Positions 1 through 1,045 of a DNA stretch of 43,062 bases are shown one piece after another. Positions within the stretch are counted from its first letter, which is position 1. Every line of letters starts with the position of its first letter. Source of the DNA: a virus (Duplodnaviria > Heunggongvirae > Uroviricota > Caudoviricetes); IMG/VR virus record IMGVR_UViG_2663763326_000007; one strand, 5' to 3'. The notes under the pieces were generated by a model that was given only the letters and a program-made list of their open reading frames with translations, had not been told where the DNA came from and did no database searches. A program made the position numbers and the translations under genes.

Positions 1-325
1 TTACTCCAGAGACAGCCGAACCGAAAAACCGTTTTCAGCGAGCGTCAGACTCAGTGTGTTGATAGTCCAGTCCCGGTCCTCCTCGGTCCCGAAACCTTGA
101 GTTGTGACTTTGCATTCTGCTGTCAGCGACACTAAATCGAGCGTCGCTGGCGTCGTGTACGTCATAGAGAACTCTTTTTTAGCTGCACCGCCCTTGAGCC
201 CTGGTGCAGCTTCTTTCGCTGCGTCGAGCGACGGCTCAACTGCCGGCCATTCAATGACAGGATCGCCGCCACTACCTTGTCCGCAATTCTTTGATCTGCC
301 CAGTTGCTGTGTCGTGATATTTAAT
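1..325 (-). pseudogene. Shifted-frame C-terminal continuation of the gpD-like gene (frame break between about 274 and 325)
   Basis: Manual translation of the minus frame ending at the stop at 1-3 is open from 324 to 4 and reads as a plausible protein (..GDPVIEWPAVEPSLDAAKEAAPGLKGG..WTINTLSLTLAENGFSVRLSLE). Combined length about 365 aa fits gpD-like proteins. Confidence 0.4.
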
Positions 326-1045
326 CAGATACGTCGGTTCCGGATTTTCGCCACCGCTACCACTATCGCCACTTTGTCCATTTCTCGAATAGCCCCAGCT
401 GGAGTTATCACGACGAGTTAGCGTGTAGTGCTGGAGCGGAGCACCGCTAACAGATTCGCCCGCGCCGCGCGGCAGGAATATCCAGTACCCGCCCGCGGGT
501 TTACTCACCGCATCGAATCTCGTTGCGAGCCGCGACATCAGGTGCATATCTGACTCGCCGACCTGATCGAGTTGCGTGATAACATTGTCTGCAAACCGCT
601 TTGATACGCGTGGTTTTAGCCCATTATCGCTCGCTATTGTCGCAACGATATCGCTGACAGTGACGTCGCTCCAGGAACGAGTCTTTTTGCTCTGAACTGT
701 CGGAGATCCTTTTGCTGCGTTCATCGGAGCCGCTTTTGCTGTGAAATCAACTACCCGGGGTTCACCGCCACTGCTAGCACCGTCAACGATGTATATCCCT
801 TTATCAATTATCTGATTACCGAAACCGAGCCCAATACTGATTTTTACTCCGCGGGCCGGAATTTTCAGAGTTTCAGAAACTATTGCTACGCGGAGTTCGT
901 CTGTCTGTTTACTGGAGCCGCCGTAATCTGTCAGCGTGATATTGATCAAACCTTTTCTTATTTTATCCGTGATGTTTTTATTATCAGCAGATATATAAAA
1001 ATTAGGTTTCCACGCCTCCACGCCAGTATTTACGTAATCACTCAT
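272..1045 (-). CDS. P2 gpD-like tail protein (late control D family), N-terminal 257-aa segment
   Basis: Minus-strand ORF at the distal end of a P2-type tail cluster (after U and X); family assignment by sequence character and position. Ends at a TAG at 272-274 while a different frame continues to the window edge. Confidence 0.6.
   Translation of the reverse strand: MSDYVNTGVEAWKPNFYISADNKNITDKIRKGLINITLTDYGGSSKQTDELRVAIVSETLKIPARGVKISIGLGFGNQIIDKGIYIVDGASSGGEPRVVDFTAKAAPMNAAKGSPTVQSKKTRSWSDVTVSDIVATIASDNGLKPRVSKRFADNVITQLDQVGESDMHLMSRLATRFDAVSKPAGGYWIFLPRGAGESVSGAPLQHYTLTRRDNSSWGYSRNGQSGDSGSGGENPEPTYLIKYHDTATGQIKELRTR

Follow-up and report, generated by a model that had tools for sequence, protein, structure and literature searches.

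Described central baseplate hubs of the gpD/gp27 type include P2 gpD (the "late control protein D" of PF05954, Phage_GPD), Mu gp44, T4 gp27 and the hub of pyocin R2 (PDB 6U5H), and the N-terminal part of the type VI secretion protein VgrG carries a related hub domain. The gp27 and gp44 hubs are trimeric, a hub of this class being a trimer that closes off the tail tube and bears the gpV spike; a virion needs only three hub copies, and gene D of P2 is an essential tail gene. Virion genes broken by a frameshift are common in resident prophages, and defective E. coli prophages are known in which a single-base indel in an essential virion gene was followed by IS insertions while the element was retained. 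The window analyzed here, a stretch of 43,062 nucleotides (IMG/VR record IMGVR_UViG_2663763326_000007), is of the same kind as these defective prophages, and is notable in comparison with them only for the spread of its lesion, which occurs in exactly the same form in 364 of 5426 complete E. coli genomes.

Based on annotated equivalents in strains 4/1-1 (CP023844) and 751 (CP103562), the window belongs to a ~42-kb prophage located between yecA and the leuZ-cysT-glyW tRNA genes (tRNA-Leu/Cys/Gly) next to pgsA, with the integrase beside the tRNA-Leu gene. The element combines lambda-like head genes (terminase, gpW, portal, S49 peptidase, decoration protein, major capsid and FI) with a P2-like contractile tail (baseplate V/W/J/I, fibre, sheath, tube, assembly protein, tape measure, gpU, gpX and gpD). 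The window is a gene-bounded excerpt, running from the gpD stop codon at position 1 to the integrase stop codon at position 43062; the attachment sites and a 420-nt hypothetical gene between gpD and yecA lie outside it. The gpD-like gene is placed inside the contractile-tail module, with the sheath, tube and tape-measure genes in the same block and two recognizable tail genes upstream: a gpU-like gene at 1435..1863 on the minus strand (PF06995 Phage_P2_GpU, 108 bits, cut-off 27.5) and, directly adjacent, a tail protein X gene at 1049..1273 on the minus strand (PF05489 Phage_tail_X, 56.4 bits, cut-off 22). As in P2, where it follows T and U, the gpD gene closes the tail operon, whereas the position of gpX directly upstream of it distinguishes the window from P2. 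The neighbours of the pyocin R2 hub, gpU-like, gpX-like and then the hub, are presumably ordered as in the window; in contrast to the pyocin gene, which comes from a tailocin, the gene of the window is frameshifted and is part of a prophage that also has head genes.

Two intergenic stretches of this operon were also recorded. The gpU-like and gpX genes are separated by an AT-rich gap of ~160 bp (1274..1434), unusually long for a tail operon, in which some records annotate a small plus-strand ORF (1293..1427). A second gap of ~108 nt on the minus strand (3500..3610) separates the gpE-like tail assembly gene (stop codon 3610..3608) from the start of the tape-measure gene; this is the expected place of a P2-type E+E' -1 frameshift extension, and a quick read of 3500..3610 showed no classic slippery heptamer.

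A sequence-only reading of the window had described the gpD-like ORF as stopping at 272..274, with a second minus-strand frame, open from about 324 to a stop at 1..3, that resembled a gpD C-terminus. The ORF list and translations agree with this description. The N-terminal fragment occupies 272..1045 on the minus strand (ORF 1045..272), beginning with an ATG at 1045 that directly follows the tail protein X gene and ending after 257 codons at a premature TAG (274..272). The C-terminal part of the gene lies out of frame at 1..324 on the same strand; its frame follows a TGA at 327..325, is open from 324 to 4 and closes with a TAA at 3..1, the last base of which is the first base of the window. 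About 90 of the 107 codons in this frame are original coding sequence, from GSGGDPVIEW onward. The N-terminal fragment matched positions 186-417 of phrog_52 ("tail protein"; E=1.9e-74) and the downstream frame matched positions 423-512 of the same profile (E=5.6e-14), and these consecutive stretches indicate that both frames are parts of one family model. A 16-sequence alignment placed the downstream frame in columns 290-391, where P, A, G, D, W and G are conserved, and matched it to the conserved C-termini of 14 homologues, which bears out the proposed gpD C-terminus and shows that the frame is not open by chance. The same alignment to gpD-family proteins located the junction at ...IKELRT / GSGGDPVIEW. 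Rather than ending at the first stop, the homologues run on for ~90 residues that match the downstream frame.

The two fragments are represented differently in public resources. The N-terminal fragment is identical to RefSeq WP_001296153.1, annotated as a "hypothetical protein", and PGAP attaches no pseudogene flag to this 257-aa CDS. In the downstream frame the first start codon is an ATG at 165, which gives an orphan 54-aa ORF (1..165, minus strand) that is annotated separately as "hypothetical protein / Gene D protein" in ON470596.1. This ORF matched phrog_7984, a family of 54 positions and "unknown function", with E=7.8e-41, and phrog_7984 appears to have been built from orphan C-terminal ORF fragments of the broken gpD-like gene.

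To the reported break between 274 and 325, a three-way DNA alignment, with coordinates assigned by script, now gives an exact position at 277..278 on the minus strand. The first 1300 bases of the window have matches of 99.9-100% in four GenBank "phage" records, three of which share the break. The remaining record, ON470604.1 (vB_EcoM-720R5), is one base shorter and carries a single 1044-nt gene for "tail formation protein D"; over 1300 bp it differs from the window by that one base. When the window, the intact ON470604.1 and the broken ON470596.1 were aligned, an extra A on the coding strand at 277/278 (ACAAGG in the window, ACAGG in the intact gene) was the sole difference in 201 columns. Read on the plus strand, where 272..280 is CTA CCT TGT (CCTTGT), either T of the pair at 277/278 can be taken as the additional base. 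In place of ACA GGT AGT (T G S), the ribosome now meets ACA AGG TAG (T R stop); the frameshift falls after codon 256 of the intact gene and translation stops at codon 258. The intact allele translates to 347 aa that span both fragments of the window (...IKELRTGSGGDPVIEW...SLE*). The break lies in the context GGACAAGGTAG, with no base run longer than two, and the insertion site itself, set in GGACAAGGTAGTGG, is an AA dinucleotide; the remark that the break shows no obvious homopolymer is therefore accurate. We consider it highly likely that the lesion is a true single-nucleotide insertion in a baseplate hub gene, inherited in a clonal lineage and inactivating. The window holds no uninterrupted ORF for the whole hub fold, the last 90 codons being out of frame, and its copy is a pseudogene of the gpD/gp27 family and hence not a functional member.

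The family assignment was made with the intact allele. A database search with this allele returned 102 homologues, of which the full-length ones are 323-442 aa long and each encoded by one ORF. The closer homologues (E below ~1e-72) cover 91-100% of the intact query as a single ORF and come from Escherichia, Salmonella, Enterobacter, Cronobacter, Citrobacter, Serratia, Providencia, Pantoea and Vibrio. The sole match to the 257-aa product was cluster P0009 (100% identical, 135 member sequences), which is the broken allele; no naturally short family member was present among the 102 homologues, the other short entries being labelled partial or coming from short contigs. Precomputed Pfam tags assign PF05954.18 to nearly all homologues. 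In our own hmmscan, PF05954 (Phage_GPD) gave 23.8 bits for the intact protein and 22.4 bits for the N-terminal fragment, with a gathering score of 30.1, and the NCBIfam model VgrG_rel, at 18.5 bits with a cut-off of 275, was far below threshold and was set aside as of no use for family assignment. Because these Pfam and NCBIfam scores are sub-threshold, the assignment rests on a PDB profile match, PHROGs and fold comparison. The intact protein matched phrog_52 ("tail protein") with E=2.6e-94. A family profile built from 63 sequences matched the pyocin R2 hub chain 6u5h_C with E=2.7e-74, aligning profile positions 7-330 with residues 1-322 of 329; since this match spans nearly the whole chain, the C-terminal part that is lost in the window lies inside the solved hub.

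Fold comparison agreed with the profile match. An AlphaFold2 model was obtained for the intact allele P0001, which is 97% identical to the intact protein and does not represent the truncated product of the window, with a pLDDT of 86.9 and a pTM of 0.79. Foldseek searches with this model returned, at probability 1.00, the hubs of pyocin R2, PVC, AFP and eCIS, phage P1 and the MuSo2 43-kDa tail protein, as well as Mu gp44, T4 gp27 and VgrG, with alignments spanning the whole length; query-normalised TM-scores were 0.55-0.70 for 6u5h_A, 3cdd, 1wru, 9ki1_G, 1k28_D and the VgrG structures. The pyocin R2 hub was the top Foldseek hit (E=1.1e-19) at 22% sequence identity, was matched end to end by the family profile, and is of similar size (329 aa compared with 347 aa for the intact window-type protein). 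Mu gp44, T4 gp27 and the N-terminal hub domain of VgrG share the same predicted fold (1wru, 9ki1_G, 1k28_D and 4uhv_B, probability 1.00 each) at only 9-16% sequence identity, and the window-type hub lacks the extra spike domains of the VgrG and PVC proteins. In sequence, P2-type "late control protein D" homologues of E. coli (P0021, P0024 and P0026) are 41-42% identical over 99% of the length; they contain 390-399 aa, whereas the intact protein of 347 aa lacks their lysine-rich C-terminal tail. Judged by these profile matches and the predicted fold, the gene is a gpD/gp27-type central baseplate hub of the P2 gpD / Mu gp44 / T4 gp27 / pyocin R2 kind. Public annotation names the intact allele "phage late control D family tail protein" or "VgrG/Pvc8 family", and both alleles, the truncated WP_001296153.1 and the gene family are already present in public databases.

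What the insertion removes can be read from the model of the intact protein. Residues 258-347 are ordered, with block pLDDT values of 84-95, and are modelled as strands at 260-270, 292-299, 312-316, 325-336 and 339-346 and a helix at 273-289; the lost 90 residues include a W and an A that are invariant in the family, and an E and two G's that are nearly so. The extra A leaves a 257-aa product deprived of its last 90 residues, a strand-helix-strand module of the hub fold, and with such a truncated subunit the trimeric hub would be expected to fail to assemble or to nucleate the baseplate, leaving no functional tail. By analogy with P2 gene D and the architecture of the gp27 and gp44 hubs, we infer that hub function is lost and that the prophage is tail-defective. 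Conceivably the 257-aa protein still functions as a hub, either by itself or with a separately translated C-terminal piece, as it keeps most of the conserved columns and the Pfam-matched region. However, the full-length homologues have at least 323 aa and the 102 entries include no naturally short member, the 90 residues that are lost show order and conservation and lie within the solved pyocin hub, and the sole downstream start would give 54 aa beginning mid-module. As no start codon precedes the ATG at 165, the C-terminal module cannot be translated on its own. With no start codon for this module and no naturally short homologues among the 102, the idea of a split but functional gene was rejected, and we regard a functional truncated hub as extremely unlikely.

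A full-length hub could also be produced from the broken gene by recoding. According to this explanation, leaky or programmed +1 frameshifting would occur at ACA-AGG-UAG (segment GAATTGCGGACAAGGTAGTGGCGG), with tRNA-Arg slipping from AGG to GGU to yield a full-length hub carrying G257R. AGG is a rare codon in E. coli, and +1 sites in general, for example CUU-UGA in prfB, have a stop or hungry codon in the A site right behind the shift codon; here AGG is followed directly by UAG, and the two together may pause the ribosome. A shift at AGG would restore the exact downstream frame, which carries no further lesion in the window, and even a low shift rate might keep the phage viable. On the other hand, a Shine-Dalgarno-like stimulator is missing from the preceding 15 nt (AAAGAATTGCGGACA), which contain neither a GGAGG- nor an AGGGGG-like element; the CCU anticodon re-pairs poorly on GGU (a G-U pair, a G-C pair and a third-position mismatch), and the shift from ACA to CAA does not re-pair. 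The split is moreover found only in the near-clonal lineage with the extra A, while homologues from 88% to 26% identity are single ORFs, a distribution that gives no sign of selection for recoding. The intact state of the downstream frame is explained by the very young age of the lineage, whose two alleles have no other difference in 1300 bp, and the additional IS insertions in the prophage suggest that selection on it is relaxed. Programmed frameshifting was therefore rejected as the main reading, with neither conservation, nor a stimulator, nor good re-pairing to support it, and recoding in either its leaky or its programmed form is very unlikely. The more specific proposal that low-level +1 shifting at ACA-AGG-UAG supplies the three hubs per virion, leaving the prophage attenuated and not dead, is highly improbable; if true, it would be a case of an apparent pseudogene rescued by accidental recoding.

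The distribution of the two alleles bears on whether the inactivating insertion is real. A probe of 81 or 82 bases across the insertion site was compared with 5426 complete E. coli genomes, 447 of which matched. The 82-mer with the extra A was present at 99% identity or above in 364 complete genomes and the intact 81-mer at the same level in 66; ~14 further matches were divergent relatives. The three broken GenBank "phage" records are PHASTER-predicted prophages in Illumina HiSeq/SPAdes assemblies and not sequenced virions, and PHASTER graded these broken copies as intact. The possibility that the extra base is a sequencing or assembly error, absent from the real genome, draws on three one-base homopolymer deletions that the window shows relative to strain 751, a sign that its assembly contains errors. 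Yet the RefSeq entry of strain 751 has the same truncated CDS without those deletions, the site is an AA dinucleotide outside any homopolymer, and the identical allele is found in 364 complete genomes from many laboratories as well as in Illumina-only assemblies. As the same non-homopolymer insertion recurs in hundreds of independent assemblies from different platforms, it is no assembly error; this explanation was rejected on the population counts and the Illumina-derived records, and the chance that it is nonetheless correct is practically nil.

Apart from the extra A, the two alleles do not differ over 1300 bp, and diverged homologues carry no break; the uninterrupted gene is therefore the ancestral form and the insertion is recent. 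The near-identity of the carriers and their shared chromosomal site suggest that the insertion arose once, in an otherwise identical prophage, and was then passed on vertically; its fixation would have been neutral. The lineage with the insertion is large, mostly human-clinical and includes O25b:H4-ST131 strains, with at least one carrier (strain 751) labelled O25b:H4-ST131. Strain names and sources give the impression that the intact allele is more frequent among poultry and animal isolates.

The sequence-only reading had also placed the gpD break together with a tape-measure break and an IS in xis, and had suggested a decaying prophage unless these were assembly errors. The IS insertion is real: a complete 1443-bp IS150 (IS3 family) with orfA/orfB and their usual frameshift lies at 40445..41887, flanked by a 3-bp target duplication (ATG), in a DUF4224 xis-like gene just upstream of the integrase. 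PGAP annotates the element in strain 751 as "IS3-like element IS150 family transposase", and among the 5426 complete genomes its junction is shared only with O25b:H4-ST131 strain 751 (NZ_CP103562.1). The gpD insertion, common to 364 genomes, is accordingly the older lesion, and IS150, common to the window and strain 751, is recent; homopolymer deletions particular to this assembly form a third kind.

The tape-measure break is of a different nature. Along its full 43062 bases the window aligns collinearly with strain 751; there are zero substitutions, and three single bases are missing from the window, all of them in plus-strand C runs. One is the tape-measure break at 2552 (run at 2546..2551), where C7 has become C6 (G7 to G6 on the minus strand) and the gene is split into ORFs 3499..2450 and 2438..1860. 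The second (at 20311, in 20305..20311, C6 to C5) breaks the frame of a TIGR02594-family lysis-cassette gene, and the third (at 23241, in 23236..23241, C6 to C5) is intergenic, ~11 nt upstream of a small hypothetical gene. Homopolymer deletions without substitutions are the usual signature of long-read consensus error. In 425 of 431 E. coli genomes the tape-measure gene has G7 and encodes an intact 546-aa protein; G6 was found in 6 of 431, scattered, and as one of these six has the intact gpD allele, its occurrence is sporadic. Given three homopolymer deletions and zero substitutions relative to strain 751, the tape-measure break is probably an error of sequencing or assembly or, at the very most, a slip private to this genome, and should not be taken as evidence of decay. 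The prophage is nonetheless damaged: of the suggested lesions, the real, inherited gpD insertion and the IS150 in the xis-like gene stand, while the tape-measure break probably falls away; the caveat of assembly errors probably holds for the tape-measure gene and does not hold for gpD.

Later lesions have accumulated on top of the gpD insertion, with IS150 in the xis-like gene and, in two other genomes, IS1 in or next to gpD. In NZ_CP135697.1 (583041-585117) and NZ_CM190132.1 (2949995-2952071), the 1300 bp covering gpD and gpX contain ~777 extra bases with an IS1 family transposase, an independent lesion, and an IS1 within this segment in two genomes fits relaxed selection on the element. We found no literature on this ST131 yecA/leuZ prophage or its induction.

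The window serves as a worked example of how a real, inherited frameshift can be told apart from homopolymer artefacts within one sequence, and reveals no new biology. Two annotation artefacts come to light in the comparison, one being WP_001296153.1, the 257-aa "hypothetical protein", and the other the 54-aa ORF behind phrog_7984; it also provides a one-base marker that splits 430 near-identical carrier genomes into 364 and 66. For the organism, it means that the yecA/leuZ prophage of a lineage containing O25b:H4-ST131 strains is very probably unable to build tails, which is relevant for counts of "intact" prophages in these strains, as PHASTER called the broken copies intact.
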